Origin: Mayamaea pseudoterrestris
Lineage: Eukaryota
Direction of reading: 5' to 3'
DNA: 64,000 nucleotides
Assembly: GCA_027923505.1 (NCBI GenBank)
Contig: BROI01000001.1
Location: forward strand, 186,001-250,000
Shown here: in pieces, positions 8,145-64,000 of the stretch
Layout of the letters: each line of letters opens with the position of its first letter
How positions within the stretch are numbered: position 1 is the stretch's first letter
Translations under genes and position numbers: made by a program
The notes under the pieces: generated by a model
What the model was told of the DNA's origin: nothing
The model's database searches: none
What the model saw: only the letters and a program-made list of their open reading frames with translations

Positions 8145-9047
8145 TTGATGTGGGAAGAAAAGTACCAAACGCTGGTTTTGTCCATCAAGAAGAATAAACA
8201 CCCAAACATGGGCGCATTGGTGGATCCACCGGCGGGCGATGAAAATGCGTATAGAGCAGCGCCAACAACGACAAAGAAACAGCAATTATCATCAACATCC
8301 ATAAGTAGAAACATGATGCGGACCGTCACACTCGAGCAAGTCGTTCAAACCGTTACACTCGAACCAGCCCGCGGTCGACTGCGCGTTGGCATTCTCCTGT
8401 TTCAGGACGTTCAAGTACTCGACTACTGCGGGCCATCGGAAGTGTTTAGTGTCACGCGCCTCGTTGGGCAAGCACCGAATGTCCAAGCTACAACAACCAG
8501 TCCCTTTCAAGTGATACTTGTTGCCGAAACACTTGATCCAATCACTTGCCGGGGTGGAATGGAGGTGATGCCACACGTTGACTTTGACTCTTGTCCGGAG
8601 CTTGACATTTTCCTCGTGCCTGGCGGGGTCGGTACGGGAAAGCTGCGCTACTATATTCCCGTTATTAACTTTGTACGAGCCAAGGGCAAGGAATGCAAAA
8701 TACTAGCCGCTATATCGAGTGGGGCCATACTGCTGGCCCAAGCTGGATTGCTGGATAAACGACATGTTGCGACACACCATCAAACGCTTGACTTGCTCGA
8801 AACTGAGTTTGGGAATAGCGTCACAGTGGAGCGCAAGCTGCAGTGGGTCCAACATGGCAAACTCTTTACAGGAGCTGAAGGCATTGACGTTTCGCTAAAG
8901 ATTGTGCAGCAGATATTCGGAGAAATTGCGGCAAAGGCAACGGCGCGGCACATGGAGCACGCGTTCCCGGACACGAACCAGCGACTAGTCAATTTAGATG
9001 ACGATGAGAATGAAACTGGGTGCGAGCTGCGATGCTCCATTATGTAA
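8145..9047 (+). CDS. DJ-1/PfpI family protein, catalytic residues apparently substituted
   Basis: VGILLFQDVQVLDYCGPSEVF, DIFLVPGG, GAILLAQAGLLD..ATH, GIDVSL; start codon uncertain. Confidence 0.85.
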   Translation: MMWEEKYQTLVLSIKKNKHPNMGALVDPPAGDENAYRAAPTTTKKQQLSSTSISRNMMRTVTLEQVVQTVTLEPARGRLRVGILLFQDVQVLDYCGPSEVFSVTRLVGQAPNVQATTTSPFQVILVAETLDPITCRGGMEVMPHVDFDSCPELDIFLVPGGVGTGKLRYYIPVINFVRAKGKECKILAAISSGAILLAQAGLLDKRHVATHHQTLDLLETEFGNSVTVERKLQWVQHGKLFTGAEGIDVSLKIVQQIFGEIAAKATARHMEHAFPDTNQRLVNLDDDENETGCELRCSIM

Positions 9048-26048: not shown

Positions 26049-26276
26049 GGTGCTTGATAATGTCGCTCTTGTTGTTTGCTCGATAATATAGAAGCGTCTA
26101 TGAGTGTTGCAATCGTTGTTGCTGATGAAAGACGTTCGATTGCTTCAACAAACGTGTCTCGATTTTCGCCGGTTCGCCATGGTCGACCGCGGCGACGGCA
26201 GGTGTCTTAGCGGTTTAACTAAACGTCACAGTGGTTATGATTTAAACGAAACGGATCAGTTTTGCGGATCCGTTTC

Positions 26277-26506
26277 TCCGGCTTAGAGCGGATGCACAGA
26301 GGAGCCCGCCCTAGGGACTACCCGTAGGAAACCTACGGGTAAAGTAGCAGACACAGTTTGGATGACATTGAGATTGCCGCTAGGACATTGCGATTGCTGC
26401 TGCGACACTTGGACATCCCTTTAAGCCATCGGCTTTCAGCGGCAAGCCATTCCTTTCGGATCAGCTCTTGCACCCTTGTTAGCAATAGCATCTCCGTTTT
26501 TGTTCC
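26277..26506 (+). repeat. Split direct repeat A1 (230 bp)
   Basis: Matches 34604-34833 except for a TT/CC dinucleotide. Confidence 0.95.
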
Positions 26507-26550
26507 TCGCCTGTAGCTTCAAACCGCTTTCTTTCCTCATCATCATCATC

Positions 26551-28269
26551 ATGCTCATTCGTCTTCGTTTTCCTTCCCTAGCTGAGTTCGGGGGTGCTCC
26601 TGTGGCCCTCTCATGGCCGGAGGAGATTGCCTTGCCGACCACGTGGCTTGGAACGGATAATGTTCCTCCTAAAGGAGAGCGCGCCAAGGCGATGGAGCTC
26701 CAGCTTGATGGAAGCTGGGACAAGGAGAAGGACAAGGAAAAAGTGCTCCACAAATGGTTGACAAAGGAGGAGTTTTATGCGCTCAACCAGCGCATGTCGG
26801 TCAAGACAAAGGAGCCTGACGACGACGACGCCAGCGACATTTACCTTGGCGCACTTGACAAGCTCAAAATGATGGGCAACGCCAACGTTGGCGCTATGAT
26901 TACTCTCTCAAGCTTCTCGATTCCAGGGCAAGTGCTCGCAGACAATCACGCTTTGATTTGCTCGGCGGCGCCCTCTGGTACTGCCAACGGCAACGCCTTT
27001 TTACTTCAAACAAACCAAGCCACTTTGGACGCATTGGATACATCTGCCGGAGCCAAGGAACCTTCCTTCTTGTTGGAAGCTTGGTCTCACTTGCAGCCAC
27101 TGAATGTCGCGGCTCCATCCAGCGTCAACCCAGTTGTCTCAATTTTGACACGAAACACGCGCGCCACTTTGGTGACTGCTCCTGCGACTCGGCATTCCGA
27201 AGTACTGCACGATGCCTTGGTCTTTGCCAATGGCTTAAAATTGACCCAGCCAGCTTGCTTCCTGGTCCACAAAGAGGACATTCCAAAGGATCACCCTGCT
27301 GGCAAGTATTTTCTGGGACCAACGCCTCCCACCTTCACTTCTGGTGACAAACCTTTCGCGATTGTGACAACAAAACGTCCTGTGACGACGGAAAATATGC
27401 CGGATCTGCGCACTCTTGTGCAGCAACGTGCGCTATTCATACCGAAAGGCCATCATGGCATCCCACTTGGGGTCCCTTTCGATCACTTGCGCTGCCACAC
27501 TGGAGCGCTCCTCAAGGCCTTCTGCATGGAGTTCACGGAGCTACCGGATGAGGCCTACGCTTGGATGATTGATAATCCAATTTTGGATACTTTTCTTGCA
27601 GCATGCGCCACCCAGGCATCGGCCATGAAGCTTGACACATTGTTCATGGCACAATTGCACGAGTCCTGGGAGAGTTGGAAACTTGAGCAATCATTGGACT
27701 CGCATCTTGCCATTCTCCATCCGGAAACAAAGATCCGCTTCAGTTGGATGTGGGATTACCTCCGGCATTCACTCACAAAACAGTGGGGAAACAAGCTAAC
27801 GCTTTATGAGCAAAAAGGAATGGCCATTCTCCAGCAGTCACCCGACATTGCCGAGTGGAATAAAGAGTTTCTCATGGACACTATCCATTTACCATTGCTC
27901 GTCAATCCCAAGGCAAAGTTGTGGATTGAAAACTTTCATATTCCTTTCCTTCGCCAAAATTTGCTGCCCATTTGGAATCGGTTTGCAAGTGTCGACCTGC
28001 CGGCGGAATCTTCCGACGATTTTATCGCTTCGCTGCGCATCGAATTGAAAGACAAGATTTCGGACGCGCAGTCTCCGTCATCCGCTGCAAAACATAATAG
28101 CCAACCGGCTCCAGCAGCATTGGATATTCTAGCGGCCATGGGCTTCTCACATACGGTAGCAACACCAAACCGGGCGCCCACTGTGGCGGAAGATGAACAA
28201 TCACCGCGCGCAATCGTAAACTCACACCTTCACCACCCGACAAGGCAAAAAGAGGAAGGCGCTGTTTGA
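26551..28269 (+). CDS. YR-retrotransposon ORF1, unknown function (gag-region)
   Basis: Long ORF starting just after A1 (first ATG 26551); no motif recognised. Confidence 0.75.
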   Translation: MLIRLRFPSLAEFGGAPVALSWPEEIALPTTWLGTDNVPPKGERAKAMELQLDGSWDKEKDKEKVLHKWLTKEEFYALNQRMSVKTKEPDDDDASDIYLGALDKLKMMGNANVGAMITLSSFSIPGQVLADNHALICSAAPSGTANGNAFLLQTNQATLDALDTSAGAKEPSFLLEAWSHLQPLNVAAPSSVNPVVSILTRNTRATLVTAPATRHSEVLHDALVFANGLKLTQPACFLVHKEDIPKDHPAGKYFLGPTPPTFTSGDKPFAIVTTKRPVTTENMPDLRTLVQQRALFIPKGHHGIPLGVPFDHLRCHTGALLKAFCMEFTELPDEAYAWMIDNPILDTFLAACATQASAMKLDTLFMAQLHESWESWKLEQSLDSHLAILHPETKIRFSWMWDYLRHSLTKQWGNKLTLYEQKGMAILQQSPDIAEWNKEFLMDTIHLPLLVNPKAKLWIENFHIPFLRQNLLPIWNRFASVDLPAESSDDFIASLRIELKDKISDAQSPSSAAKHNSQPAPAALDILAAMGFSHTVATPNRAPTVAEDEQSPRAIVNSHLHHPTRQKEEGAV

Positions 28270-28297
28270 CTATAGCGCGCAACAGAAGCTTGGCTAC

Positions 28298-29962
28298 ATG
28301 GACATCGAATACGAGGCCTACACTGACGACAAGTCGGTGGACTATCTTGGCACCAAACCGGCACAGAACTCGCCACCGCGAATGACATTTAAATTACCTG
28401 CGCGCAATACAGTTACAACAACTTCAAACTCAACGTTTCTGCTGCCATACGAGCAACCACACACCCAGTTGTTGCCCTATTTTACAATGGGCACAAAGAT
28501 GCTCTCTCGCAACATTGATTTTCTCTTTCCGGTTGCTTCTTCGCAACCCGACCGATTTAATCGCCAAGCCTACGTGGAGGATGGACTCTCCAACGCTATT
28601 GTCCTGGCTGCTCATTTTGGAGCCATTGCTGTCGATCCAAGATTTCACATGGGCCCACGAGATGACAGTAAAGGACATCGTTTCCCAGATTGGCAAGTTC
28701 TCATCCCAGGATACGTGTCAAAAAAGTATACCTTAAATGTACTCGAGTCGAAAATTCCCGGCCACGTGACAAACCATTTCAGCAACGAACTTCGCGCCGC
28801 TCAAAACTCCACAATGGAATCTTACGCGCGACCGAGCTTTGCCAACAACGACTTCTTCACCACACCTGATAACATAAAAGCACTGCAATCAGGTCTTTTC
28901 TTTGCAGGCGATGATCCAACCTGCACCTTTGATTCCTATATCAGCCCATGGAGCTTCATTCAAACGGTCCAAAAAACTGGGCACCGCTTCACACAGGAAG
29001 GCTTGGACTGCGCAAAATTAGCGCAACTGACAAAGAATATCGCATGGTTTTTCCATATCCACTTCACAAACCAAGTTCGATTCCCAGCACTGCGCGAGGT
29101 ACATCCTGAACTCTCACCTTGGCTACTCGCATCTCCATTCGCTGGTCAACTAGCTTGGCTGATCCAGCTCCTCGCTAACCAGCGCCTGCAAGAAACATGG
29201 TCCAACATGTCGACTGACAGAAAACTAACTTGCTCAATTGCTGTCATCAACTCTATCTGCAATTTATGGCGCATTGTTATTGACTGGGCCATGTCACTCG
29301 ACTCCGATGATCATTGTGTGCGAGTACTGCTTCACTCCCAACAGTCACGCTCCGACGTCTGCGCGTTCAAAATGTTTTTAGACAACAATGGCTTTGAACC
29401 ATTGAGTGAGGCACTTGCAGCATGGCGATCCAGCACCATGAGGGGAATTACCATTGAAAATCTTACAGCAAAGGAATTGCCCAATTTTGGGCCTTTTAAA
29501 CGGCAAGCCCCCACGGACGTCATGCCTGAGAAAGCAAAACATCACGACAAGTCATCCACCCAACCAAAAACCTCAACAAGTGGCGCCAGCCAACAGAATT
29601 CAGCCGCACAAAAGCGTGAAACAACCGGTACGTATTTAAAAGCTCCTGCTTCGTTGGCACGTTGGCGTGATGGCACCGACTGTTCCGGTGCCGCAGTTCG
29701 GAAACTTTTTCAACATTTGAGCCGCCGCACTCCCCCAATCCGAGCTCCAGTGTTTGAAGGAAAACAATTATGCCTTTTCCATGCGCTGCATGGATCCCCC
29801 GGGTGCGATGTAAAAGACTGTCCACGCCATCACATTGTGCTTCCAGACCCAACTGGAACTTGGACGCGCGAGAAACTTCGCCCGCTTCTTGATTTTTTTC
29901 GCAAGCCAGCGGTAGCGGCCATTTTGGAAACCTCAGCTGTGTTTAACGCGGCATCATCTTGA
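28298..29962 (+). CDS. YR-retrotransposon ORF2, gag-like with C-terminal Cys/His finger
   Basis: CLFHALHGSPGCDVKDCPRHH near the C-terminus; located directly before RT. Confidence 0.75.
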   Translation: MDIEYEAYTDDKSVDYLGTKPAQNSPPRMTFKLPARNTVTTTSNSTFLLPYEQPHTQLLPYFTMGTKMLSRNIDFLFPVASSQPDRFNRQAYVEDGLSNAIVLAAHFGAIAVDPRFHMGPRDDSKGHRFPDWQVLIPGYVSKKYTLNVLESKIPGHVTNHFSNELRAAQNSTMESYARPSFANNDFFTTPDNIKALQSGLFFAGDDPTCTFDSYISPWSFIQTVQKTGHRFTQEGLDCAKLAQLTKNIAWFFHIHFTNQVRFPALREVHPELSPWLLASPFAGQLAWLIQLLANQRLQETWSNMSTDRKLTCSIAVINSICNLWRIVIDWAMSLDSDDHCVRVLLHSQQSRSDVCAFKMFLDNNGFEPLSEALAAWRSSTMRGITIENLTAKELPNFGPFKRQAPTDVMPEKAKHHDKSSTQPKTSTSGASQQNSAAQKRETTGTYLKAPASLARWRDGTDCSGAAVRKLFQHLSRRTPPIRAPVFEGKQLCLFHALHGSPGCDVKDCPRHHIVLPDPTGTWTREKLRPLLDFFRKPAVAAILETSAVFNAASS

Positions 29963-30133
29963 CTCCACCAAGGTGAAGCACTCGATCTCGACACATCGTC
30001 TGCGACGCCGGCGGGCGCACAGGCAGCACAGGATGGGCCAAGCTCAACTTATCCCAATTGTGCCTTTTTAAATAACAACTATAGAAAAATCACACAAATT
30101 AACATTGAACTGGACTGCTGCAACAATGCTGAG

Positions 30134-33043
30134 ATGACACAATCGCCATCACCCGCGGCGCCAAGGAATATTGAACCAGCAAACGCTCTCGTGGAAATGA
30201 GGCACACGGTCCCACCGTCGGCTCCAGCCTCCGTACCCTATTGCGACCAAACCTTGCGCAACATTCTGCCACACATTCCACCAACTGGTGCGCGGCCAGT
30301 TCGACTCACCCGATGCACACATCGCAAACCAACTCGCGCCTCCTCTGTGACGCGATACAATTGGGATCATTTTCTGGCAACCATCATGGCCCCAGTTTGG
30401 CAATTTTTAACGGACCCTGAATCAGCAACCCTACAGTCTGCATATCCTGATTTCTTACATCCAGTCTTTGGTTCAACAACCGTCATGCATCCTGATCCTC
30501 GCATTTGGCTTCGACAAAAATATGGTTGGGGCAAAGCGACTCCTGATATTTCGACGCGACACGCACAGCCATCGCACCACATGACCTTACACCTGGTATG
30601 GCATTGGCTTACAGTCTCAGATCGCCAAACAATGGCTGCTGTTGAACCTTGTTGGGAAAAATACGCACTTCTGCGCCAGCGTGCAACAGCACGAGCCGTC
30701 CCACACCTACGTGTGCCACGCCTGTTTCCGGCTGACGACAATACGCCTATCAGCATGACTCGAGCAAACGACATGGGTGCAGCCCTTCTGCGCTTTGACT
30801 TTAACTATGGTGACTTACTGCGCTGGCTTGGTGGTGAATATACCTACCAGCACCAAGATCGCTCGCTACTCTGTGATGTCGTGGAAACACTACGCACCGC
30901 CTCGCGCCCACCGGATTATCCACCGGTGAAATTGGACGAAGCAATACGCATTATTCATGAAGGCGTTCCAGGTAAAAGCAACTTTGTTGGAAAATTTGAG
31001 GATGTTCGTGCACGAGAACAGCTTGACAACCGTCGTTTGGACGAGTGCTGGGACGACGTAACGGACAAATTCCGCAAGGAAGAAAAAATGTCATACCACA
31101 TAATGTTTCCTCGCTTTCTATGGAAGTTTATCCCAGGCTTGTTCCTTGCCATTATCTCCTACATCCCTCCAAAAGTGGGCCGTCTTGGTGATGAAGGGCG
31201 GATTGTATGCGATCCATCAAATCCAATTACAACAACAGACGAAGGCATGATTAACAAGCAAATTCCAGACGCTCTCCACCCAGACAGTGACCATTTCAAT
31301 CCAAGAGTGTATTACGGCACTGTGATGCGCCGCTATCTCCAGCTAATTTATAACATGCGCCTCGATAATCCGGACGATGAGATTTTTCTGGCTGCTGATG
31401 ACATTTCAGCTGCGTTCCGCTGGCTGCACTACCACCCAGACATTGCTGTGGCTTTTGCATCCATCCTTGGTCCATTTCTTGTCATCCCGGTGGGGCTAAT
31501 TTTTGGCGCACGAAACTCGCCAGGATACTACATGATCCTTGGTGAACTACGCAGCCAGATTGCTGCGCTCCTTGATATTGGCGAGGCCACCACCGACCTT
31601 TCAAATACAATAGTGCTAAGCGACGAGCCAACCAACGAGACCATTGCATCTTTTCAACAGTCAACGGCAGACTCCAAGAACATGGGTGTTCGCTCAATAC
31701 TTGGACGCGACTATAAATTTGGCTTTTCCAGCTTTGTCGACGATCAGGCTGTCGCGGCGACACGCGACACGATTTTGAACGCAATTACCAGAAGCGTCAT
31801 CGCGGCTCGCATTGTTTTTGGTGAACCAACTCCAGCAAGACGCGCTTTATGTATCAACCCACGCAAATGGAAAAGGGAAATTTCACACCAACTGCTCTAC
31901 TTGGGTCTTGATTGGGATTCGCGCCGTATGGAATTGTCTTGGCCTGCGGACAAACAGGCACGCTTGGCATCTCTCATTGATCGCCTCAGTGACAAACCAA
32001 CCGGTTTTCGGCCGGATTACATTACAGTCACGCCAGTGGAAAAGGCAGAAATATTGGATTTAATATGCCATGGAACTTTAGTCAGTGATCTTGCCGATTT
32101 CCGTTCCATCCGCCTACAGCAATCTCTCACTGACGCAGCAAGTAAAGCTGACGCAGCATTTCGCTCCAGCCCCAATGCGAACTTTGCTCGCCGTCAATGG
32201 TGGCGCAAAACAAGGATCGCTATATCAAAAGAGGCACTGGCCGACTTGCGCATTTTACGTCCAACTTTGAACACGGACAAATGGTCTCACGTATGGCGCA
32301 AGCCAATTGGTCTGCTCATTCCAAGGGTACCAACAAACACCATGAAAAGTGACGCGAGCATGTCTGGCATTGGAGGCTGGAACATTGAGCTCTTGTTTAT
32401 GTGGTGCCTCAACGCATCCGACCTGCTCAGTTGTAACATTCCAATGCGAGCATTCCATGAATTGGCACATCGCACCACTGGTGATCCACTCCATATCAAC
32501 ATTCTGGAGTTCATGGCCATTATAATAAATGTGATTCTCACGCTGAGTGCTTTAATGGCAAATCCACAAACCAAACACAACCAACATGTCATTAGCGTCT
32601 TGGCCGACAATACTTCGGCCCTTTCCTGGATGCGTCACGCTGCGCGCAGTCGGGATCCTGAAATTCGTAGGTTGGCACGATTCTTACATGCCATCACCAC
32701 TTACAGCTGTCTCACTTTCTGCATCCAGGGACGTCACTTGCCGGGAGCCAACAATGTGGAGGCGGACCGACTTTCTCGCTTCAAAACCTCGACGGAGTCG
32801 TGGGAGTCCGTTATCACGCCGGAAACGCAGGCGCTAGCAACATGCAGCATTTACCGAGTGGAGCGCGACTTGCTTTTGACAATCTCCTCCGTGATAGACG
32901 GGAGCGCGAACGAGGCGACATACGGTCCAAAAACGATAAAACGTTTGACAGCCGCGCCAAAAATTTTGGTGAATGGGCGATCGACGCAGGGTTTACGGAC
33001 GAGTCTCTTACAGCGCTCGCACCGGGGCAAGAAATCTCGGTAA
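30134..33043 (+). CDS. Reverse transcriptase / RNase H (DIRS-type)
   Basis: RT: GRIVCD, DDISAAFR, LIFGARNSP, FVDD, YLGLDWD. RNase H: SDAS..GIGG, HINILEF, ADNTSA, HLPGANNVEADRLSR. Confidence 0.95.
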   Translation: MTQSPSPAAPRNIEPANALVEMRHTVPPSAPASVPYCDQTLRNILPHIPPTGARPVRLTRCTHRKPTRASSVTRYNWDHFLATIMAPVWQFLTDPESATLQSAYPDFLHPVFGSTTVMHPDPRIWLRQKYGWGKATPDISTRHAQPSHHMTLHLVWHWLTVSDRQTMAAVEPCWEKYALLRQRATARAVPHLRVPRLFPADDNTPISMTRANDMGAALLRFDFNYGDLLRWLGGEYTYQHQDRSLLCDVVETLRTASRPPDYPPVKLDEAIRIIHEGVPGKSNFVGKFEDVRAREQLDNRRLDECWDDVTDKFRKEEKMSYHIMFPRFLWKFIPGLFLAIISYIPPKVGRLGDEGRIVCDPSNPITTTDEGMINKQIPDALHPDSDHFNPRVYYGTVMRRYLQLIYNMRLDNPDDEIFLAADDISAAFRWLHYHPDIAVAFASILGPFLVIPVGLIFGARNSPGYYMILGELRSQIAALLDIGEATTDLSNTIVLSDEPTNETIASFQQSTADSKNMGVRSILGRDYKFGFSSFVDDQAVAATRDTILNAITRSVIAARIVFGEPTPARRALCINPRKWKREISHQLLYLGLDWDSRRMELSWPADKQARLASLIDRLSDKPTGFRPDYITVTPVEKAEILDLICHGTLVSDLADFRSIRLQQSLTDAASKADAAFRSSPNANFARRQWWRKTRIAISKEALADLRILRPTLNTDKWSHVWRKPIGLLIPRVPTNTMKSDASMSGIGGWNIELLFMWCLNASDLLSCNIPMRAFHELAHRTTGDPLHINILEFMAIIINVILTLSALMANPQTKHNQHVISVLADNTSALSWMRHAARSRDPEIRRLARFLHAITTYSCLTFCIQGRHLPGANNVEADRLSRFKTSTESWESVITPETQALATCSIYRVERDLLLTISSVIDGSANEATYGPKTIKRLTAAPKILVNGRSTQGLRTSLLQRSHRGKKSR

Positions 33044-34101
33044 TTGCCGCATACATGTTTGATGTTGTTTCCAGGGGACAATCCCTGCTGGCTAAAAAGA
33101 AGTCACAAAAATTCACCACACAACAAGATCCCACGCCTCTCTGTACCAAATCATTGGTAACTTACCTGAACTCAGCCCATTCATTCCTGGAGACATTTGT
33201 ACAACGCAGATTTTCGATCCAAGACCCTCGCGGCTCGGGCCACCATCCCTTACTGGCTGATATTCTGGACAGTCGTCGGAAATGGCAAACAACCAAGGAA
33301 AAACGCGAGCCATACACACATCGCATGTTTGACTTCCTCTACCAGTCTGTTTGTGCAGCAGCCACCACGGACACAACGGCGCACCTGGATCTGGAAGCCT
33401 CTGTTCTTGACTGGACTTGCCTTGGCGTATTCACCGGATCACGTGCTAACGAATATGCACAGTCCACCGCCAAACGTGGCCACTTTAGCAAAGTACCCAA
33501 CAGCAGAGATGCTGGTCAATGGGCAGGTTGGCCATTAGGCTTTGTGGACCTCGACTTTGTTTATTATACAAAAAGCAACGTTCTCCTGCCACATTCCATG
33601 TTACATAAAGCAGGCGACAGTGCGTACGAATTACACATTCGTTTCCGGTTTGACAAAAGCCAAAACAATTTTACGATTCGCAAGTATCGACGCTTGGGTC
33701 ATAAATTAATCTGCCCTATCCGGGCCAGCATTTCGCTGATTCTACGTGCCAAAATCCTTCACAAAGCACCATACGCAGAACCACTTGGAGTTTTTCGCTA
33801 CAACAACAATGGCGACTACCATTACCTCCAGGCGCGCGATGTAATCCGTGTAACGCGGCAGGCAGTGATTGGCGCTTACCCAAACCCAAACCACTTCCTA
33901 CGACTCAACATTACACGAATTGTTGCACATTCAAATCGCGTTACGGCAGCGGTAGCACTCAATAACTCTGGTATGAGCATTGAAGAAATAGCGTTTCGCT
34001 TACGCTGGTCACCACCTTCGGTGCACCATTATTTACGTGAATGTTCAGAAAAAATTGGTACACTTACCAGCAATGCCATTAAAGGCGCAATAATGCTATA
34101 A
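32842..34101 (+). CDS. Tyrosine recombinase (DIRS-type integrase), overlapping the end of RT/RH
   Basis: Catalytic set R (GSRANEY), K (FDKS), HxxR (HSNR), RW and Y (RWSPPSVHHYLR); first ATG at 32842. Confidence 0.93.
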   Translation: MQHLPSGARLAFDNLLRDRRERERGDIRSKNDKTFDSRAKNFGEWAIDAGFTDESLTALAPGQEISVIAAYMFDVVSRGQSLLAKKKSQKFTTQQDPTPLCTKSLVTYLNSAHSFLETFVQRRFSIQDPRGSGHHPLLADILDSRRKWQTTKEKREPYTHRMFDFLYQSVCAAATTDTTAHLDLEASVLDWTCLGVFTGSRANEYAQSTAKRGHFSKVPNSRDAGQWAGWPLGFVDLDFVYYTKSNVLLPHSMLHKAGDSAYELHIRFRFDKSQNNFTIRKYRRLGHKLICPIRASISLILRAKILHKAPYAEPLGVFRYNNNGDYHYLQARDVIRVTRQAVIGAYPNPNHFLRLNITRIVAHSNRVTAAVALNNSGMSIEEIAFRLRWSPPSVHHYLRECSEKIGTLTSNAIKGAIML

Positions 34102-34371
34102 TAAAATTACACCTTTACATTTACCCATTCTTCCTTGCATTGGGAATTTGAGGATTGGACAATTCAAGTTTGCATCCAAGGGCACTGACTCCCCCGAGTT
34201 CAGCTCGTCCTGGCGCTCCTCACCTGACGTCCTCCCTTTCCCAACATTGCACTGACCAGGACCTTTTCTCCTTTCTTTCCCATGCTTCTTTCTTCTTCCT
34301 TTCCGCGGTTCTTGCCACAGGCACTCTGTTGTTGTGGCTTGACGCCTTCAGCCTTGCTCGCTGAGTCGTGT

Positions 34372-34603
34372 GGGTTGTGGCGAATCCTGCAAGACAGGAT
34401 TCTCCTCAGGCGTCATCCATGACGTGTCTCCTGCTCTGGGAACCCGGAGTCCACTCCGTGTTCCTCAAACCATGCGACCCGACTCTCGCTACACTCGTCG
34501 AGCCACCTGAGGCACGAGCAAGTCTAAGCGCGCCAACGCGCGCAACACTTTGGAAGAACGAAGCAGCCGAGCGACGGAGGGCAATCAGCGCCCACGCTGA
34601 TTG
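34372..34603 (+). repeat. Split direct repeat B1 (232 bp)
   Basis: Identical by eye to 34847-35078. Confidence 0.95.
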
Positions 34604-34833
34604 TCCGGCTTAGAGCGGATGCACAGAGGAGCCCGCCCTAGGGACTACCCGTAGGAAACCTACGGGTAAAGTAGCAGACACAGTTTGGATGACATTGAGA
34701 TTGCCGCTAGGACATTGCGATTGCTGCTGCGACACTTGGACATCCCTCCAAGCCATCGGCTTTCAGCGGCAAGCCATTCCTTTCGGATCAGCTCTTGCAC
34801 CCTTGTTAGCAATAGCATCTCCGTTTTTGTTCC
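34604..34833 (+). repeat. Split direct repeat A2 (230 bp)
   Basis: Copy of A1, directly abutting B1. Confidence 0.95.
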
Positions 34834-34846
34834 CCCCCACCCACCC

Positions 34847-35078
34847 GGGTTGTGGCGAATCCTGCAAGACAGGATTCTCCTCAGGCGTCATCCATGACGT
34901 GTCTCCTGCTCTGGGAACCCGGAGTCCACTCCGTGTTCCTCAAACCATGCGACCCGACTCTCGCTACACTCGTCGAGCCACCTGAGGCACGAGCAAGTCT
35001 AAGCGCGCCAACGCGCGCAACACTTTGGAAGAACGAAGCAGCCGAGCGACGGAGGGCAATCAGCGCCCACGCTGATTG
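34847..35078 (+). repeat. Split direct repeat B2 (232 bp), right end of the element
   Basis: Copy of B1, separated from A2 by a 13-nt C-rich spacer. Confidence 0.95.
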
Positions 35079-35267
35079 ATTTTTTCCACAGCTTGAGCAG
35101 ATCGTTCACTATAAACACGACCATTCACACTGCTACATCTGTTGAAAACTCGACGATTTTATACACGCAAGGCCAAATATGTTTTCATAGCATAAACGCT
35201 TACGAACGTTTTAGGCGCTTCAACGATGCACGAAGCAGTCGTCGCGCGCAGTTTACAGCACCATCAT

Positions 35268-36301
35268 TTATTTCCATATATTTTCATGACAATGCACCAA
35301 CAACTCGCGCGCCACGTTATTGATATGGGCGAACCGTTTTGGTCCAAGCGAAATTCCACCAAACCATCGCGACACCACGACCAAAACGTTTGTTTCGCGT
35401 CGAAGCTCCAGCAAGTGACCAAGGCGAGACCCGGCAGTTGTTGTAGCAGTTTCTGGTGTGGCGCTGTCGTGGTGAATGATTGTTTCGTGAAGATGTGCAA
35501 TCGAAGGTTTACTGCTTGCTTTTTGTTGATGCGGAACCGTCTCCAGTATTCGATATGTCCACTGAAAAGAGTGACACAAGTAGAACAATGAAATGCATTT
35601 GATAGTGGTTTATCATGTGAATAGCAGCTTTTTTGACGTACCATGTTGTGCGTGGCTTTCTGAAGCTTGTTGTTGCTGGATAGCAGCTGCTGCAGGGCAG
35701 GTTGAACGTCGGCTTCGCAATGTAGTCGACAAACATGCGCGACAAAGGTGGACTTTCTGTCATGCAACGGTTCTCCAGTGATCCAAGTATATGCATTTGA
35801 AGATGATTCGGTTGGACAAGGCGAACATGCATTTTGATGCGTCGTCATTTCGTTCCTGTTCCTGGTCGGTTCTGTTTTACGCGACTCGTCCAACGGTGCT
35901 GCAGACATGGATCCATCGGCCATCACTTGACTATTCCAAGTATCAAGTGCTGCGGAAACGCAAGCAAAGGATCCTTCCACTCCATCTTCGAGACATTGAT
36001 TTGCTATAGAGCGAACGATCGACACGGTGTCATCCATTCGGTTCTTCTCGTCGGGACTGCTCCGATACGACGAAATCTGGATATTAGTTTCAGCTGGATA
36101 TCCTTTAACTATCTCAAGAATGATGCGAGCTGACGAAGATAGGTGAAGAGTCCATTGCAAGGGAAAGAAGCAAGTTGCATCGTGTGCAGTCGCAAGCAGT
36201 TTTTGACGAGTCGATTCGTCAACCTCGATTTCATCGGGATAGGCAGCCAGTAGCATTTCCAAATCAGCTTTAGCTTGTTCCACTGACTCTTGTTGGTCCA
36301 T
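35268..36301 (-). CDS. IMPACT/YIH1-like protein (RWD plus UPF0029 domain); intron 35562-35641
   Basis: ELEML.AAYP-like and GYP (RWD); DRKSTFVAH, KATHNM|WTYR, AGSRL..LL, VVVSRWFGGISLGPKRFAHI. Confidence 0.88.
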
Positions 36302-58099: not shown

Positions 58100-58325
58100 T
58101 GTGAGCTTATCGCTACATCGCTACATCGACCACTCGGAAGATCATCCGATCAATCCGTTTCTTTCAATCACATTACATCAGTCGTAACTGGTCGTTCCAT
58201 TCATACAACGCATCCACACGACGGTTGCGCACTTTCTTCATTCACATGTCACATACGACAGCTGCGGACTCGACACAAGCTAATTAGGGTTCGGGCTCTT
58301 GACTTCGCCGCTCTGCGACTTGTCA
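58100..58325 (-). repeat. Putative 3' LTR (~226 bp), preceded by PPT GAGGGGAG (58326-58333)
   Basis: Minus strand reads GAGGGGAG|TGACA...TCACA|ATATA; the partner LTR is not in the window, so the distal end is inferred. Confidence 0.7.
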
Positions 58326-61300
58326 CTCCCCTCGGGTACGCTGCTCGTTGTAGCCGCATTCTTGTCCTTCACAATCGCATACGATGTATCGCCGCGCCAA
58401 AACAATACTGGCTTGAGCAATGGCATCGCATCACAGTACGGCAGGTACTTCGTCAGTACGTCCGCAATGTTCTCCTTTCCGTCAATCTTTACAAACTTGA
58501 TAATTCCCGCAGCAACTGCCCAACGAACACGATGGTAGGCCAACGCATTGTGTCGCTTGGACAATGTCGAACTCGGGATTGTAGATTGTGTAATCACTGC
58601 TTGGTTGTCTCCGTACATCCAGGCAGACTTCTCCAATGGTACGCCCATAGCCATGAGCGACGCGCGTAGAGAAATGCTGATATCCGTTCCACTCTTTGCT
58701 ACGCCGAATTCCGATCCGAAGGTCGCAGTCTCGACTGTAGCCTGGAGTTTGCAATGCCAGTCGACAGGCGTCTGGTTGACAAATGACAAAACTCCTTCCA
58801 ATGACTTGCCTGTCACCATGCAATGCATGAGACACGCATCCTCGAAAGTTGATGTTCGTACAGTCACACCCTTTGGCGGTGGGTAGACGTCCAACATCTC
58901 ATCAACTCCGTCCTTCCCGTAAACGCTGCGCTCCCAATCTTGTTCCTCCATGGTGCCGAAGTGCTCCTCGTTGGCTGGCCACTTCGTACGGAAACGGATT
59001 GCTGCGTCCGGTAACTCTCGCAAATATCCACAGACTCGCTTCACCCGCTGCAGGTGTCCCTTGCGCGGCTCCACACGGAATCGCGACAGACTCACAACTG
59101 CTACGGCAATGTCAAATCGACCCAAAGTAATTGCCCACTGAAGTGCTCCGACTAGAGACTGGTAAATCTTCTTCTCTTGGTCGTTCAGTAGCTCGCTTTG
59201 GTCAAGTTCTGGATGATCGTCTTTGTCGATTGGTGATGAGTACTTCTTCGGAGGACCTTCAAACAAACGCTCGTACTGCGCCAAGAGTTTCGCAACGTAG
59301 GTCTTGGCCGACCAGTAAAGAGTTCCGTCAGGGTCTCGTCCAAAGTCACCGCCGAGATGATACTCGGGATGTCCAACACCTTTAAGCTTAAACTTGTACT
59401 TCTCCTCTAGCATCTTGAAGAACGCTGCTGGATCGTCTGAAATATTTAACAGATCGTCGACCCATACACAGAGGTAGTCGTAGCTGTCGCCAGCGTCCTT
59501 GATCCACAGATCGGAATCGCAATAGGACGGCTTCCACCCTTCCGCAAGTAGGGCGTCGGCTAAGCGTTCGTGAAATCGTGCTCCGCTCGTTCGCAATCCG
59601 TACAAAGCCTTGACGATGACCAGGATGTGTCCTTCGCGCTCCCCGAACTCGGGGCCTCCAACGAAGTATACCTTCTCCTTGGTGAACGCTTCGAGATAAG
59701 CATTCCCAATGTCACCGACCATGCACTTCTTGCCGTTCGCTTCTCCAATGACGAGAGCTAGACGCATTGCCTTCAATGAGATAACACTGGAGTAGGCATC
59801 GTTGTTGTCTTTCGTCATGTGGCCGCCTGCAACGAGACGTGCCTTGTATCGCAAATCGTGCTTGACATCGTACACAAAATGGACTCGGATCTTTTGGTAA
59901 CCAGTTGGTGGTGTTGTGGTGGAACTCGGACCAAGATCTTGAAACGTCTCGTACTCGTCCAGGTTCGCAAGCTCCACGCCTTCCGCATCCGTCCACTTCG
60001 TGTGCCCTGCAGCTTCCTGCAAACGCCGCGCTTCCTTCCAATCTCGGGGTACTTGGACTCCAAACTTGTAGCGCGGTCCGTTCTTCTGCTGCTCCATTCG
60101 GGCGGTCGCCACCTTGCGCGCAACCTTCTTGGCGTTCCGGGCCCATCGATTCAACGATGTCCATCCGTCCTTGTCGAGAAGATTATGCTTTTGCGCGTAG
60201 GCTGCCACTGATACTTTGTCGCTTTCGATCATCGCGTTGAGAGGCTCCCAAGTCTTGGATCCATCGTCCCATTGTACAAGGACGTTCCACTTGGAGTGCT
60301 TCCAGTTCTTCGACTTGCTCGTCAGCGGACCCTGATGGTCTAGAATCTCCTTGAAGAACCATTTACGCTCAGGATTCGCCATGTCTTGGTTCACTTCGGC
60401 CTCGTAGAGATCGGAAACCTCGACATACGACATGACTTCGTCCGCTTCGCCGTTACCAAGCTTCAGCATCATTTTAATGTTCTGATGGTTCTGGGCGTCG
60501 CGGTTGTTCAGCTTGCTCATGACGGTCGCTCGAACTTCTTGCCCGTCGTCCGTCTTCATGAGAAACGACTTGCCGATAAGTTCATCGGGTGCATACTTCG
60601 GGAGTTTGCGCCACGGATTGATGTTCTTCTTCTTCGGCTTGTCGTCGTCGTCATCGGCAGGATTCGGATCTTCCTCCCCGTCGGTCATATCGTCGTCTTC
60701 CGGGTATTCCACCGTCTCGACCAAAGGGGTATCGTCTTCGTCAGGAATGAAAGAATCATCGTCTCTGCTGTCGGCGTCGGTAATCTTCTTGATCATTTCC
60801 GGCATAAGGATCTCGCCACCTAGACCAGGTACGGTATAGAGACGCGGCTCCCCTTCTTTCATGACTGGGGAAGCAGGTGCCGGTACGCGAAGGTTCAAAA
60901 ATTTTGGGTCGTTTCGGGGTAAGCAAACCGATCGCGTCATGATCTCGTGTGTCTCGCAATCGCAGATGAAGTACGTCAGGTCGTCTCCGCACGTCGTGTT
61001 GGGACCAAGCCAGTACGCCGCGCGCTGGCGGGTCTTCGGGGCCTCGACATCCTTGACAAAGTAGTTGACAATTTCAAACCAACGAAAATGCAAATACTTC
61101 GACACGTCGGGGACTTGCCCAGTGATAAACTCGATGGGAGACTTGCCGTCCAAGGCAGGATGCGACAAATGACGGTACATCTCGGTCTGAAAGAGTAAAG
61201 CGCGTAGCCAGAAGCATGCCGGAGTGCCCGTTCGGTCCATAAGTCGTTCATGACTTTCCTTTACGTGCCCGATGATGCGCTCGGCTGGGTTTTGATTCTG

Positions 61301-64000
61301 GTAGTACGGCTCCGATGTGTGACGACGGCGAATCATGAACTCGCGCATAACTTCGTCAAACTCGGCACTCATCGCTTCTTTCGCATTATCCGAGAAGACT
61401 TCCAACGGAGCTCCAAACTCGCGGATGAAATCACGGAATCGTTTCGGTACGTCACCTTTCGTCCGCATGGGATACACGACAATGATCTGACTGCGACAAC
61501 CATAGAATAGCTGCACGCATGTGCACCCTGCATGTCCGTCGATGTGATCATCCATGGCTGGTTCGTCGAAGAACATGGTGTCATGGGCCACTCGATCATC
61601 TAGACGGTAGACGTTCAGGAATCGGCTCTTTCGATGCATTCGTGGGGGGTATCGGCGCTCGTGCATGTTGAACTGCGTGCTGTGGCGCAAAGTATCCTTG
61701 ATCGTCTGCGCCGGGTACCATGCAAAGTTTGGCAGCAATGCGTCGATATCAGGTTTCTTTGGCAGGATCGACTTGTAGGGCTGATAGACGAGATCCGCAT
61801 TGTACTTCTGTACAACGGCACAAACATTCAGCTCCTTCTCGGTGTAAACAGGTTGATTGTCGTGTCCGAGATTCGTATAAGTCACGTTGCTCTGACGATG
61901 GGTGCGATTCCGCGTACGCGAGCGTGTCACGCGCGTGAAGCCCTCTTCGTCGTCACTGTCTTCGTCGTCTTCGTCGCGCGACAACAAGTCCGGTACGTCG
62001 TCCTCGTCGTCATCGTCATCCGAAGAGTCATAGTCGTCGTCCTCGGTCGGCTCGACGTCAAACTCGTTCGGATCCCAAGGCCCATCGAAGGTCATCATGA
62101 CCCGAGGTAAGGTGTGAAGCTCATGCGCCGACACTGGAAACATGGGCAAGGTCGCCATGCCACTTTCCATCCCGAGCATAAACTTGTATCCATCTGGCGT
62201 TTCGATTCGTAACTTGCCACCAAAGTTATAATGCTTATCGTTGACATGAAGTCCGAAGGCTTCCATCTGCATACTCGAATGAATCGTCTTGCCGGTTCCA
62301 GAATATGCGTAATTATGGAACTCACCGACGACCCAACCCTTGGTGCTCTTAAGCTTGGCGACTGCTGTGACGGTAGACAGGTCCGGAAGTTTGAGACCAC
62401 CGACTCCAGTGACTTCAATCTTGTGGAACTTGTCCTCGGTAAGGATGCGGCCGTCCGCTCCCCATACTCCGCCACTCGCGCCGCGATCGACAGTCGACGC
62501 TGAATGCTTATCCAAGTCAATGCTCGCGACTTTGTACTTGCGACTCTGAGCGATATTCGCTCCCCGAGTCGTAGTCGTGGGCTGGTCTGGACCTAAGAAA
62601 CTTCGCATCGCTGAGCCACGGCTGGTGTTGTTCACACGCTTGGTCGCCGCACTCGCCGTCGTTGCCGCTGATGAAGTGGCTGCGACGTTTGCGTTGCGTG
62701 TTGTACTCGTCGTCTGCGTGGTGCCTGCCTGTGTTGCTGATGCCGAACCACCTGCAGCACTGGCCGCTCGACTCGTACCACGGCGTTCAAACACTTCATG
62801 TTGCTGGTCGCGGGTAAGGAGTCGCCACGTGTTTGGTGGAATCGTCGCATTCACGTCGCTGGGAATTTCGATCGTCTTCGTGTCGGCATAGCTGCGAACA
62901 TACGAACGAGTATCTCCCCGACCGCGGCCGCCGCCGCCGCCTCGTCCCGTGCTCAAGTCGCCGCGACCACCACCCCCCTGATTGGACTGCTGATTGTTGC
63001 TGCTACTTGGCGTAGACTGGGAATTGTTCGCGCTTGCCTTCTTCGTCTTCTCCTTCTCTTTCTTGGTCTGCTCAGATTGGTTCGCCTGACGCTTCTCGGT
63101 CTCCTTGATGCCACGACGATTGTCAGATTGACGTGCGACGTCGTTCAGGAGGTTCCAAAACTGGGTGTACGCCATCGGGTTGCCGGTCTTGGACTCTTCG
63201 ATCAGCGCCATGTTCACCGCCGCTGCCATATCCGCATGGCGGAAAACCGCGCGTTCCAAAATCTGACGCTTCGTGCTTGCTGTAAGTAGCTCGGTTTCCT
63301 CGGCGTAGTCATTGTAGTTCTCTTCCTTGCTGGACCACTGGATAAGCCAATTGACGAGAGACTTGGCGTAACCCGCGTCGAGGGTGAAATTGCGCCATTC
63401 GTCTTCGGCCGAACGTAGATCCAACTTGCGCGCCATCCCATCGAGGAATGTCGCCTCCAACTCTGCAATGCACGCTGAGGCATTCGCGCTGTCGATGTGC
63501 TTGCGGACAATGAGCTTGCTCTGCGGTGTCTTGCAGGTATACTCGAGCGCCGCTAAAAGCTTCGAACACTGATACTGATACTCGGCGAATTCGGGCTCGA
63601 GTGCAGCTGGTGCCTTGAACTCGTCGTCCCAAAAGTAGCCAAGTCGCTCGCTTCGCATGCGGTTCTTGAAGGCCCGCCAGTAGGAGCAGAACTTGCGATC
63701 GTTCTTGAGCTCCAGCATGGTCTTCAGATCCAGCTTGATGTCGTGTCGCTTCGTCGTGGTGTCGTTGCCTCCGATAACGCTGAAGTCTCCGAAACTGCGG
63801 TTGCCTGCGGTCGGTGACCCCGGTGCTACTGGGAGGTCTCGGCTCGTAATCTGGTCTTTCTCCAAGTCTTGCCATTGCGCAGTCGTCCGACGTTGCTCGT
63901 GAATCCAACTCATGAGCTTGCGCAATCGGCTTGTTCGTATCGTCGACCACTGGTACTGGTTCTTAATGTTCGTCACGTCTTGTTCCGACAACTCGGCCAT
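58280..64000 (-). CDS. Copia gag-pol polyprotein (at least 1906 aa, uninterrupted)
   Basis: PR DRGA; IN HDT..SDNAKE..PYYQNQNPAE; chromo-like VLVQWDDGSKTWEP; RT KARLVAGG, GDIGNAYL, WVDD; RH EDA, TATFGSEF, GDNQAV, NIADVLTK. Confidence 0.96.
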   Translation of the reverse strand: MAELSEQDVTNIKNQYQWSTIRTSRLRKLMSWIHEQRRTTAQWQDLEKDQITSRDLPVAPGSPTAGNRSFGDFSVIGGNDTTTKRHDIKLDLKTMLELKNDRKFCSYWRAFKNRMRSERLGYFWDDEFKAPAALEPEFAEYQYQCSKLLAALEYTCKTPQSKLIVRKHIDSANASACIAELEATFLDGMARKLDLRSAEDEWRNFTLDAGYAKSLVNWLIQWSSKEENYNDYAEETELLTASTKRQILERAVFRHADMAAAVNMALIEESKTGNPMAYTQFWNLLNDVARQSDNRRGIKETEKRQANQSEQTKKEKEKTKKASANNSQSTPSSSNNQQSNQGGGGRGDLSTGRGGGGGRGRGDTRSYVRSYADTKTIEIPSDVNATIPPNTWRLLTRDQQHEVFERRGTSRAASAAGGSASATQAGTTQTTSTTRNANVAATSSAATTASAATKRVNNTSRGSAMRSFLGPDQPTTTTRGANIAQSRKYKVASIDLDKHSASTVDRGASGGVWGADGRILTEDKFHKIEVTGVGGLKLPDLSTVTAVAKLKSTKGWVVGEFHNYAYSGTGKTIHSSMQMEAFGLHVNDKHYNFGGKLRIETPDGYKFMLGMESGMATLPMFPVSAHELHTLPRVMMTFDGPWDPNEFDVEPTEDDDYDSSDDDDDEDDVPDLLSRDEDDEDSDDEEGFTRVTRSRTRNRTHRQSNVTYTNLGHDNQPVYTEKELNVCAVVQKYNADLVYQPYKSILPKKPDIDALLPNFAWYPAQTIKDTLRHSTQFNMHERRYPPRMHRKSRFLNVYRLDDRVAHDTMFFDEPAMDDHIDGHAGCTCVQLFYGCRSQIIVVYPMRTKGDVPKRFRDFIREFGAPLEVFSDNAKEAMSAEFDEVMREFMIRRRHTSEPYYQNQNPAERIIGHVKESHERLMDRTGTPACFWLRALLFQTEMYRHLSHPALDGKSPIEFITGQVPDVSKYLHFRWFEIVNYFVKDVEAPKTRQRAAYWLGPNTTCGDDLTYFICDCETHEIMTRSVCLPRNDPKFLNLRVPAPASPVMKEGEPRLYTVPGLGGEILMPEMIKKITDADSRDDDSFIPDEDDTPLVETVEYPEDDDMTDGEEDPNPADDDDDKPKKKNINPWRKLPKYAPDELIGKSFLMKTDDGQEVRATVMSKLNNRDAQNHQNIKMMLKLGNGEADEVMSYVEVSDLYEAEVNQDMANPERKWFFKEILDHQGPLTSKSKNWKHSKWNVLVQWDDGSKTWEPLNAMIESDKVSVAAYAQKHNLLDKDGWTSLNRWARNAKKVARKVATARMEQQKNGPRYKFGVQVPRDWKEARRLQEAAGHTKWTDAEGVELANLDEYETFQDLGPSSTTTPPTGYQKIRVHFVYDVKHDLRYKARLVAGGHMTKDNNDAYSSVISLKAMRLALVIGEANGKKCMVGDIGNAYLEAFTKEKVYFVGGPEFGEREGHILVIVKALYGLRTSGARFHERLADALLAEGWKPSYCDSDLWIKDAGDSYDYLCVWVDDLLNISDDPAAFFKMLEEKYKFKLKGVGHPEYHLGGDFGRDPDGTLYWSAKTYVAKLLAQYERLFEGPPKKYSSPIDKDDHPELDQSELLNDQEKKIYQSLVGALQWAITLGRFDIAVAVVSLSRFRVEPRKGHLQRVKRVCGYLRELPDAAIRFRTKWPANEEHFGTMEEQDWERSVYGKDGVDEMLDVYPPPKGVTVRTSTFEDACLMHCMVTGKSLEGVLSFVNQTPVDWHCKLQATVETATFGSEFGVAKSGTDISISLRASLMAMGVPLEKSAWMYGDNQAVITQSTIPSSTLSKRHNALAYHRVRWAVAAGIIKFVKIDGKENIADVLTKYLPYCDAMPLLKPVLFWRGDTSYAIVKDKNAATTSSVPEGSDKSQSGEVKSPNPN

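Follow-up and report, generated by a model that had tools for sequence, protein, structure and literature searches.

Organization of the element

The 64-kb stretch of DNA analysed here (the window) carries at positions 26277-35078 a retrotransposon of 8,802 nt that encodes a tyrosine recombinase (YR). Its open reading frames (ORFs) lie on one strand in the order gag-like, reverse transcriptase (RT)/RNase H and YR, and they are framed by split direct repeats of the type A1-[ORFs]-B1-A2-B2. The parts of the element are as follows:

26277..26506, plus strand: A1 repeat, 230 nt, with mismatches to A2 solely at 26421-26422
26551..28269, plus strand: 5' part of a single Gag-position ORF (earlier ORF1), matching residues 1-571 of protein P0003 with 95% identity
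28220..29962, plus strand: 3' part of the single Gag-position ORF (earlier ORF2), matching residues 566-1113 of P0003 with 94% identity
29963..33043, plus strand: pol ORF, with a variable linker, a conserved helical N-terminal extension, RT, RNase H and a tail of ~80 residues
32671..34101, plus strand: YR ORF, its start lying within the 3' end of pol, with the first Met at 32842 and conserved catalytic residues
34372..34603, plus strand: B1 repeat, 232 nt, identical to B2
34604..34833, plus strand: A2 repeat, 230 nt, delimited by repeat comparison
34847..35078, plus strand: B2 repeat, 232 nt, closing with the B-end hairpin (35057-35078) at the right end of the element

B1 directly adjoins A2, and a spacer of 13 nt separates A2 from B2. 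The exact coordinates bear out several points of a preliminary description of the locus: the split direct repeats, the A copies that differ by two nucleotides (adjacent mismatches in the 230 nt compared), the B copies that are identical over 232 nt, the intact RT/RNase H and YR frames (open over 29963-33043 and 32671-34101) and the lack of a target-site duplication (TSD), none of which was found around the element. The description of a young, near-complete YR retrotransposon with Ngaro-type repeats is supported as well. No further A or B copies occur elsewhere in the window, and no long inverted repeat or inverted terminal repeats were found; the terminal repeats are direct.

Is this layout real or could it be an artifact of the assembly? 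The comparisons below use contigs from four of the five sequencing runs that contain the stretch (X1-X4, from two studies) and related metagenome loci, which carry L numbers. The joint between B2 and host DNA is covered without differences by a contig of run X4 (record 29, 34941-35515). Repeats of the form B-x-B downstream of the YR gene also occur in the relatives L004, L012, L067, L072, L080 and L022, so the B1-A2-B2 layout is not peculiar to this assembly. Three contigs of relatives (L029, L046 and L079) are terminally redundant, and repeats during assembly can produce such redundancy.

Two details of the A repeat may be added. At both differing positions (26421-26422 and 34748-34749) the outer copy has T and the inner copy C. 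Each A copy also contains a 23-nt near-perfect palindrome (26319-26341, 34646-34668), and similar palindromes are found in the A repeats of several relatives.

A single gene in the Gag position

The preliminary description counted four ORFs, two of them large and upstream of pol, and in the window as given ORF1 and ORF2 do lie in different frames. Two features are relevant here:

28205..28249, plus strand: frame-breaking patch of 45 bp, with ~9 substitutions and 6 gaps relative to the contigs, in a predicted disordered linker
29771..29833, plus strand: Cys/His motif resembling a zinc finger, close to the C-terminal end of the Gag-position protein, from an alignment of 16 sequences

Within the patch, the depth of every listed difference from the window equals the total depth (in X2, X3 and X4 over the whole patch, in X1 up to 28240, where its contig departs from the window sequence). 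Contigs that span the patch exceed the window by 2 nt (2777 vs 2775 in X2, 2796 vs 2794 in X4 and 1427 vs 1425 in X3), so that the frame of ORF1 runs into that of ORF2. One of the four runs may be the window's own source and would then add no independent biology. Moreover, P0003, a protein of 1,113 aa from a different contig of Mayamaea pseudoterrestris, spans both ORFs, and all 11 full-length relatives aligned with it are unsplit (1,059-1,337 codons from stop to stop) and homologous to it from the N-terminal region through the C-terminal Cys/His finger.

We are therefore confident that the 5' coding region is one Gag-like ORF of ~1,100-1,150 aa and that the element has three genes. The patch is probably an assembly error; since rare variants are lost from contigs, this copy may instead carry a lesion. 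The alternative that the copy truly has two 5' ORFs, whether as a four-ORF variant of a new kind or after a recent disabling change, would agree with the split in the window sequence and in the NCBI models P0001 and P0002, and a disordered linker might be able to tolerate the break. It is quite improbable: the window version appears in no contig of the four runs compared, those of X2 and X4 otherwise match the window over 2.8 kb with one other difference, and neither P0003 nor any of the 11 relatives is split.

The ~1,100 aa of unrecognised 5' coding capacity had been called unusual. The lack of a recognisable family or fold stands, but the region is a normal Gag-position protein and not extra cargo. 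Word-index searches with ORF1 or ORF2 alone yielded no outside relative, whereas a profile of the Gag-position protein found 959 matches at E<=0.001, 160 of them at E<=1e-30 (representatives at 50% identity). Pfam and PDB sequence searches gave no family name for ORF1, and its matches in the ESM Atlas were all under 0.9. The predicted structure (predicted local distance difference test score, pLDDT, 79.8) has two large domains, ~20-505 and ~630-990, in addition to the finger; between them lies the linker that holds the patch, with pLDDT <50 over most of 506-625. Fold searches with the 1,113-residue model, taken whole and not by domain, returned no match at E<=0.001 to a retroviral capsid or any other fold (best Z 4.2), a blank that does not show a new fold. 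In the finger, C1051 and H1071 are invariant and C1062 is at least 90% conserved among the 16 sequences, and the motif would be expected to bind zinc. The name Gag is applied by virtue of position and this C-terminal finger only. With 959 clusters in the Gag position, the family is large yet invisible to Pfam, and it is therefore probably missed or mis-modelled in algal genome annotation.

The host gene next to the element has a GT-AG intron that X3 retains and that contigs of X1, X2 and X4 lack; the latter three runs thus behave as RNA-derived. All three contain long contigs of the element, which suggests that it is transcribed; the contigs carry no strand or level information.

The gag-pol junction and its stop codon context

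For pol expression and for the choice of sites by the recombinase in DIRS-order elements, this family offers one short candidate signal each. The first of them lies at the end of gag:

29960..29963, plus strand: UGA-C at the gag-pol boundary, the one in-frame stop there and a candidate for readthrough, from the junction comparison

The Gag ORF of the window ends in TGA (29960-29962), and pol continues in the identical frame. Two contigs cross this stop without a gap (X2 record 10, with 0 differences, and X4 record 25), and the contigs of the intron-skipping runs, which drop rare forms, show no splicing across it.

Is such a junction a peculiarity of one copy? Of the family's 229 metagenome loci, with RTs that are 32-45% identical, we surveyed the best 80. 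The start of pol is present in 45 sequences including the window, of which 7 begin inside pol; six loci lacking a clean gag end (L004, L012, L021, L040, L045 and L076) were dropped before counting and L048 was added, and the remaining 33 junction sequences represent 23 lineages at 80% nucleotide identity. Exactly one stop, in frame, separates the gag end from the RT core in 18 of the 23 lineages. On inspection L080 is a 19th such case, its frameshift sitting deeper in pol. On a quick RT tree of family members, the in-frame junction is found on most deep branches and is absent from the L035 clade.

The stops themselves are far from evenly distributed. Among the 18 lineages, 12 have UGA-C, 3 UAG-G (one clade), 2 UGA-U and 1 UGA-G, and none has UAA; L034, the sister of L042, has UGA-A. 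YR genes end differently: in 31 lineages UGA-C was never seen and UAA was seen 18 times. Taken together, the leaky contexts UGA-C and UAG-G account for 15/18 gag-pol stops vs 2/31 YR stops. With lineages treated as independent, Fisher tests of gag-pol against YR stops give p = 2e-7 for UGA-C and 3e-5 for UAA. The leakiness of UGA-C is documented (PMC3542737; PMC8310308), and the known readthrough classes comprise UGA-C, UGA-CUA/CGG, CAR-YYA and UAG-G plus a structure ~8 nt downstream (PMC3542737); here and below, published work is cited from the portions of text available. Letter-for-letter matches to such classes are seen in L062, L028, L014 and the UAG-G clade (L022/L027/L049).

The sequence behind the stop points the same way. 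In the first 100 codons past it, the two other frames contain 42 and 70 stops and the pol frame none, though this linker is barely alignable between lineages. Seven of the 18 lineages have their first Met only past the conserved pol motif RRxGFG, L049 ~400 codons in. Folding just past the stop has a mean z of -1.0 against shuffles, vs -0.53 to +0.75 in other windows, and falls below -1.5 in 5 to 8 of the 18 lineages. These data fit programmed readthrough of the gag stop, which we regard as the probable mode of pol expression.

A number of points weigh against it. The lineages share ancestry, and the Fisher p-values overstate their independence; the lack of in-frame stops past the junction holds by selection; and 16 in-frame cases served as seeds for the gag-end profile. 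Two stops occur in L071/L078, while L035, L073 and L016 are off frame, and none of the 6 dropped loci, which include decayed near relatives of the window's clade, has a single in-frame stop. In the window copy itself, the structure past the stop is unremarkable (z -0.5 and -0.8). Finally, the gag-UGA-pol junction of Candida Tca2 gave no readthrough in a yeast reporter (PMC2194720).

Instead, pol could be expressed from spliced RNA, from a non-AUG start, by reinitiation or by way of an internal promoter; the in-frame stop would then be left over from a split gag-pol gene. Codon 58 of the window pol is a Met ahead of the conserved region, as is the case in 10 other lineages (11/18 in all), the Tca2 junction shows promoter activity (PMC2194720), and L035 and L071/L078 have a GC-poor, T-rich, intron-like stretch past the gag stop. 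We nevertheless consider this explanation unlikely: it leaves the 7 of 18 lineages that lack a Met ahead of the first conserved pol motif, a linker that stays open in frame while barely alignable, a bias to leaky contexts that the YR stops of the same elements do not share, and the unspliced passage of contigs from the intron-skipping runs through the window stop (rare forms being dropped from contigs).

A third possibility, that UGA is read as selenocysteine or that the host uses a variant genetic code, would suit the 15/18 lineages in which the stop is UGA. It can hardly be maintained given that three lineages have UAG at a site that is a variable linker, that the element ORFs use TGG 53 times and contain no other in-frame TGA, that long host ORFs end in all three stops, and that Rfam, selenocysteine insertion sequence (SECIS) models included, gave no match at E<=1.

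GC-poor, pyrimidine-rich stretches ending in CAG lie past the gag end in L035 (4300-4380), L078 (3475-3545) and L040 (80-215). Splicing may take the place of readthrough in the lineages without a single in-frame stop. No heptamer of the -1 slippery type was detected in the L035 overlap.

Hairpins at the B|A joint and in the host flank

The second signal consists of two hairpins:

34582..34603, plus strand: hairpin (stem of 9 bp) whose 3' end coincides with the B1|A2 joint; the stem base covaries across relatives
26248..26276, no strand assigned: host-flank inverted repeat with perfect 10-bp arms (26248-26257 and 26267-26276) and a 9-nt loop, candidate target signal

The last 22 nt of B form the 9-bp stem, which closes exactly at the start of A. 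Over 13 joints (the window and relatives) the stem base is kept while stem length varies, the total hairpin measuring 13 to 37 nt; such variable spacing would argue for recognition of a folded structure over two binding sites at a fixed distance. Of the aligned cells, 95.7% are paired, and 3 of 6 pairs are changed on both sides. The covariation score was reached by 0/500 shuffles, and slid controls pair at 17-44%.

On the host side, the flanking hairpin ends exactly at the insertion point. It is unrelated in sequence to the B-end hairpin, and the outer bases of its stem resemble the B-end stem base. Outside the element, a perfect stem of at least 10 bp ends at 4/54,990 window positions, and stems of at least 6 bp form a background at 0.7% of positions. 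The element ends share a short homology of two T's.

These features suggest that the YR might cross over at hairpins in element and host alike, each time at the 3' foot, leaving no TSD, a proposal to which we give an even chance. Several observations count against it. The idea of a hairpin target comes from one host site; no empty site was seen (none among the matches listed from the contigs of the four runs); the right flanks of five elements share no motif; and the 13 joints were picked by the A-start motif and stem, with relatedness and selection favouring the covariation result. The B-end hairpin could also serve replication. If it were a signal in replication or transcription (for the RNA 3' end, for priming or for a template switch), and the host-flank hairpin no more than a coincidence or an accessible site, it would lie where the transcript or cDNA is expected to end on the class model, namely at the end of B2, and the cDNA of DIRS-1 is indeed single-stranded and structured (PMC7192593). 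With one host site to go by, we see this alternative as a serious possibility just short of even. What it does not explain is that a perfect stem of at least 10 bp, so rare among the control positions, ends exactly at the insertion point with a base like that of the B end, and that extra A starts in L022 each follow a different perfect 8-bp hairpin. The two roles, replication and targeting, need not be exclusive.

L022 itself has tandem sub-repeats of ~130 nt in A (198-458 and 8681-8941), with the extra A starts each placed after a perfect 8-bp hairpin; these hairpins differ from that of the B end. The sub-repeats may record integration into the element's own repeat. In run X3, at window position 35061, the B repeat of a related family closes with a hairpin that has the identical base but another sequence.

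Reverse transcriptase, RNase H and tyrosine recombinase

The enzymatic domains of pol were located by predicted-structure matches:

~30848-32266, plus strand: RT, within pol
~32327-32797, plus strand: RNase H, within pol

Sequence searches were of little help. Pfam detected the RT in 0/58 family members at E<=0.1, a PDB sequence search left it unnamed, and in the ESM Atlas 25 of 30 matches for pol were unnamed clusters, the other 5 having RVT_1 on 10% of their members. The AlphaFold model of pol covers 907 residues from nt 30320 (pLDDT 88.7), the first 119 pol residues lying outside it. It matched RTs by Foldseek (best E 1.5e-7), and VIA-align superposed its residues 177-649 on the Ty3 RT (Z 14.8, root-mean-square deviation (rmsd) 3.2, 274 aligned) and residues 670-826 on RNase H1 (Z 10.7, rmsd 3.0, 123 aligned). 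Among 77 sequences, no change occurs at the catalytic Asp and Glu.

RNase H ends at ~826 of 907, and about 80 residues are left past it, too few for the methyltransferase of DIRS-like elements, which measures ~284 aa in Xenopus (PMC9210276). The claim of the preliminary description that no methyltransferase follows RNase H is thereby confirmed. No cytosine-methyltransferase fold was seen in the 907 modelled residues, of which the N-terminal 175 are almost all helix. In this extension (30356-30712), two similar short helical repeats lie around RRxGFG, conserved in 17/17 aligned lineages. They were also considered as F-boxes, a reading that found no support in PDB or Pfam.

All 17 of the aligned YR sequences have R, H-x-x-R, W and Y, and K is at least 90% conserved. 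The element has no DDE integrase. By script, a Met ahead of the first invariant YR motif is lacking in 7/41 YR frames (L005, L006, L008, L009, L010, L040 and L079), of which L079 does show such a Met in the alignment; in the others it mostly lies 20-36 codons ahead of the motif. The NCBI models P0004, P0006 and P0008 fuse pol to YR via a predicted intron, and contigs over this overlap contain no such intron. Past the YR gene, L001 (7590-8440), L002 (6490-7580) and L006 (9520-10400) show by eye a minus-strand coding-like stretch and no B repeats; the stretch is possibly a cargo ORF.

Relation to known elements

By its repeat layout, ORF order and lack of a methyltransferase, the element is almost certainly a YR retrotransposon of Ngaro type, an assignment made on these features and not on a tree against reference DIRS1, PAT, Ngaro and VIPER elements. 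The inverted terminal repeats and internal complementary region (ICR) of DIRS1-like elements are absent. In VIPER-like elements the YR ORF stands ahead of RT/RNase H, and here it lies downstream of pol. The listing in PMC6681497 is consistent with that VIPER-like order. The same three features fit published accounts of Ngaro (PMC8547959; PMC3783388; PMC6681497; PMC4157794), with the proviso that structure alone can misplace such elements and that PAT lineages can lose the methyltransferase domain (PMC4157794).

With the Ngaro elements compared, from the stramenopile Cafeteria burkhardae (PMC8547959) and from fungi and Xenopus (PMC3783388; PMC9210276), it shares the A1-[ORFs]-B1-A2-B2 layout, the order gag-like, RT/RNase H and YR, the overlap of YR with pol and the lack of a methyltransferase; the repeats of Xenopus DIRS-53_XT (236 and 152 bp) are like its own in length. 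The differences are nonetheless considerable. The element is 8.8 kb long vs ~6 kb for the Cafeteria Ngaro, its Gag-position protein has ~1,100 or more aa and no fold match (searched whole), and it has no hydrolase ORF. The RT of the Cafeteria Ngaro hits PF00078, whereas that of the present family is invisible to Pfam (0/58). The ORFs of the Xenopus Ngaro are described as overlapping, while here gag and pol are in one frame with one stop between them, and a joint hairpin is not mentioned in the available text of the descriptions compared.

PAT-like elements (Pat1, kangaroo, TOC) have split direct repeats in common with it, and Pat1 also the Gag zinc finger (PMC4157794); in that group a methyltransferase follows RNase H, where the present pol has ~80 residues only. 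SymbioDIRS-Dnmt3 of Symbiodinium (PMC5890265) is likewise an A-coding-B-A-B element with a Pfam-divergent RT in an algal host, but carries in Pol a cytosine-methyltransferase of the kind not seen in the 907 modelled residues. DIRS-1 of Dictyostelium (PMC7192593) also integrates by YR without a TSD at a restored junction with short end homology, a trinucleotide there and two T's here. It differs from the present element, which has direct repeats, no ICR and no methyltransferase, and whose candidate target signal is structural and not a trinucleotide.

One in-frame stop between structural gene and polymerase, in the context UGA-C or UAG-G, is also known from murine leukaemia virus, alphaviruses (type II readthrough) and Tca2, and a stem ~8 nt downstream recurs in several lineages here (PMC3542737; PMC8310308; PMC2194720). 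In contrast to these systems, the present one is a YR element without a protease, its stop switches between UGA and UAG within the family, not all lineages have the 3' structure, which is weak in the window copy, and the system is known from sequence alone.

As to hosts, YR retrotransposons are known in stramenopiles from Cafeteria (PMC8547959) and Ectocarpus (PMC3145265). For diatoms, the literature found holds automatic labels only: a Chaetoceros preprint (10.64898/2026.04.27.720831) gives percentages for LTR/Ngaro, and the Mayamaea pseudoterrestris genome paper (PMC9724779) has a single 'Gypsy/DIRS1' row. The element is a member of a large, divergent, unannotated lineage in aquatic metagenomes. 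No relatives were found in viral contigs (0/44 pattern matches), and prokaryote genomes yielded one related 2-kb contig, probably contamination.

In the openly searchable literature, which leaves aside subscription papers, Repbase and Dfam, no report of programmed readthrough in DIRS-order elements was found; the 'read-through' of PMC12440569 is transcriptional. Among the matches listed, no paper concerned nuclear stop-codon readthrough in diatoms and no title concerned hairpin integration targets, and the specificity of the YR is stated not to have been studied experimentally (PMC7192593). What appears to be new is the conserved in-frame gag-stop-pol junction, together with a covarying joint hairpin that seems to be mirrored at the host site.

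Proposed replication cycle

The best overall explanation, for which the odds are reasonably good, is a young Ngaro-type element with a readthrough Gag-Pol and a hairpin-guided YR. A transcript running from A1 toward B2 would be translated mainly into the Gag-position protein. A few per cent of ribosomes would probably pass the leaky UGA-C and make a Gag-Pol fusion of ~2,150 aa; readthrough would thus set the ratio of Gag to RT and, in an element without a protease gene, the RT would stay tethered to the particle protein. According to the class model in the literature, reverse transcription with template switches on A and B would then give a molecule with a B|A joint. The separately expressed YR might, with about equal chances either way, join the 3' foot of the B-end hairpin to the 3' foot of a similar host hairpin, and crossover at the hairpin feet would insert A1...B2 without a TSD.

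If true, readthrough here would add a third retroelement group that uses such a strategy, and integration at hairpin feet without a TSD would be a new targeting logic with possible engineering use. A bolder view, which we hold to be rather doubtful, is that the family is not true Ngaro but a large YR-retroelement lineage of its own in algae and other protists, with a non-retroviral particle protein of ~1,100 aa, an uncleaved readthrough Gag-Pol (replaced by splicing in some branches) and a YR that picks both joint and target by hairpin shape. On that view the YR would be a eukaryotic integrase whose targeting is guided by structure and not by sequence.

Genomic setting

The element has a PX/Ysc84 gene on one side and a UPF0029-like gene on the other, each in minus-strand orientation. 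NCBI holds a protein identical to ORF1 and six RT paralogues (55-63% identity) labelled Mayamaea pseudoterrestris, names that support the diatom host proposed earlier and make this pennate diatom the probable host. In the flank of the element, variants in run X3 stand near one third of the depth, not half: 35490 (76/212), 35922 (72/226) and 36921 (59/213). A further mobile element, apparently an intact Copia element, occupies the end of the window (58283-64000, minus strand): its frame stays open for 1,906 codons or more, encodes a Ty1/Copia-type RT (RVT_2, E 1.9e-20) and continues beyond the window end.

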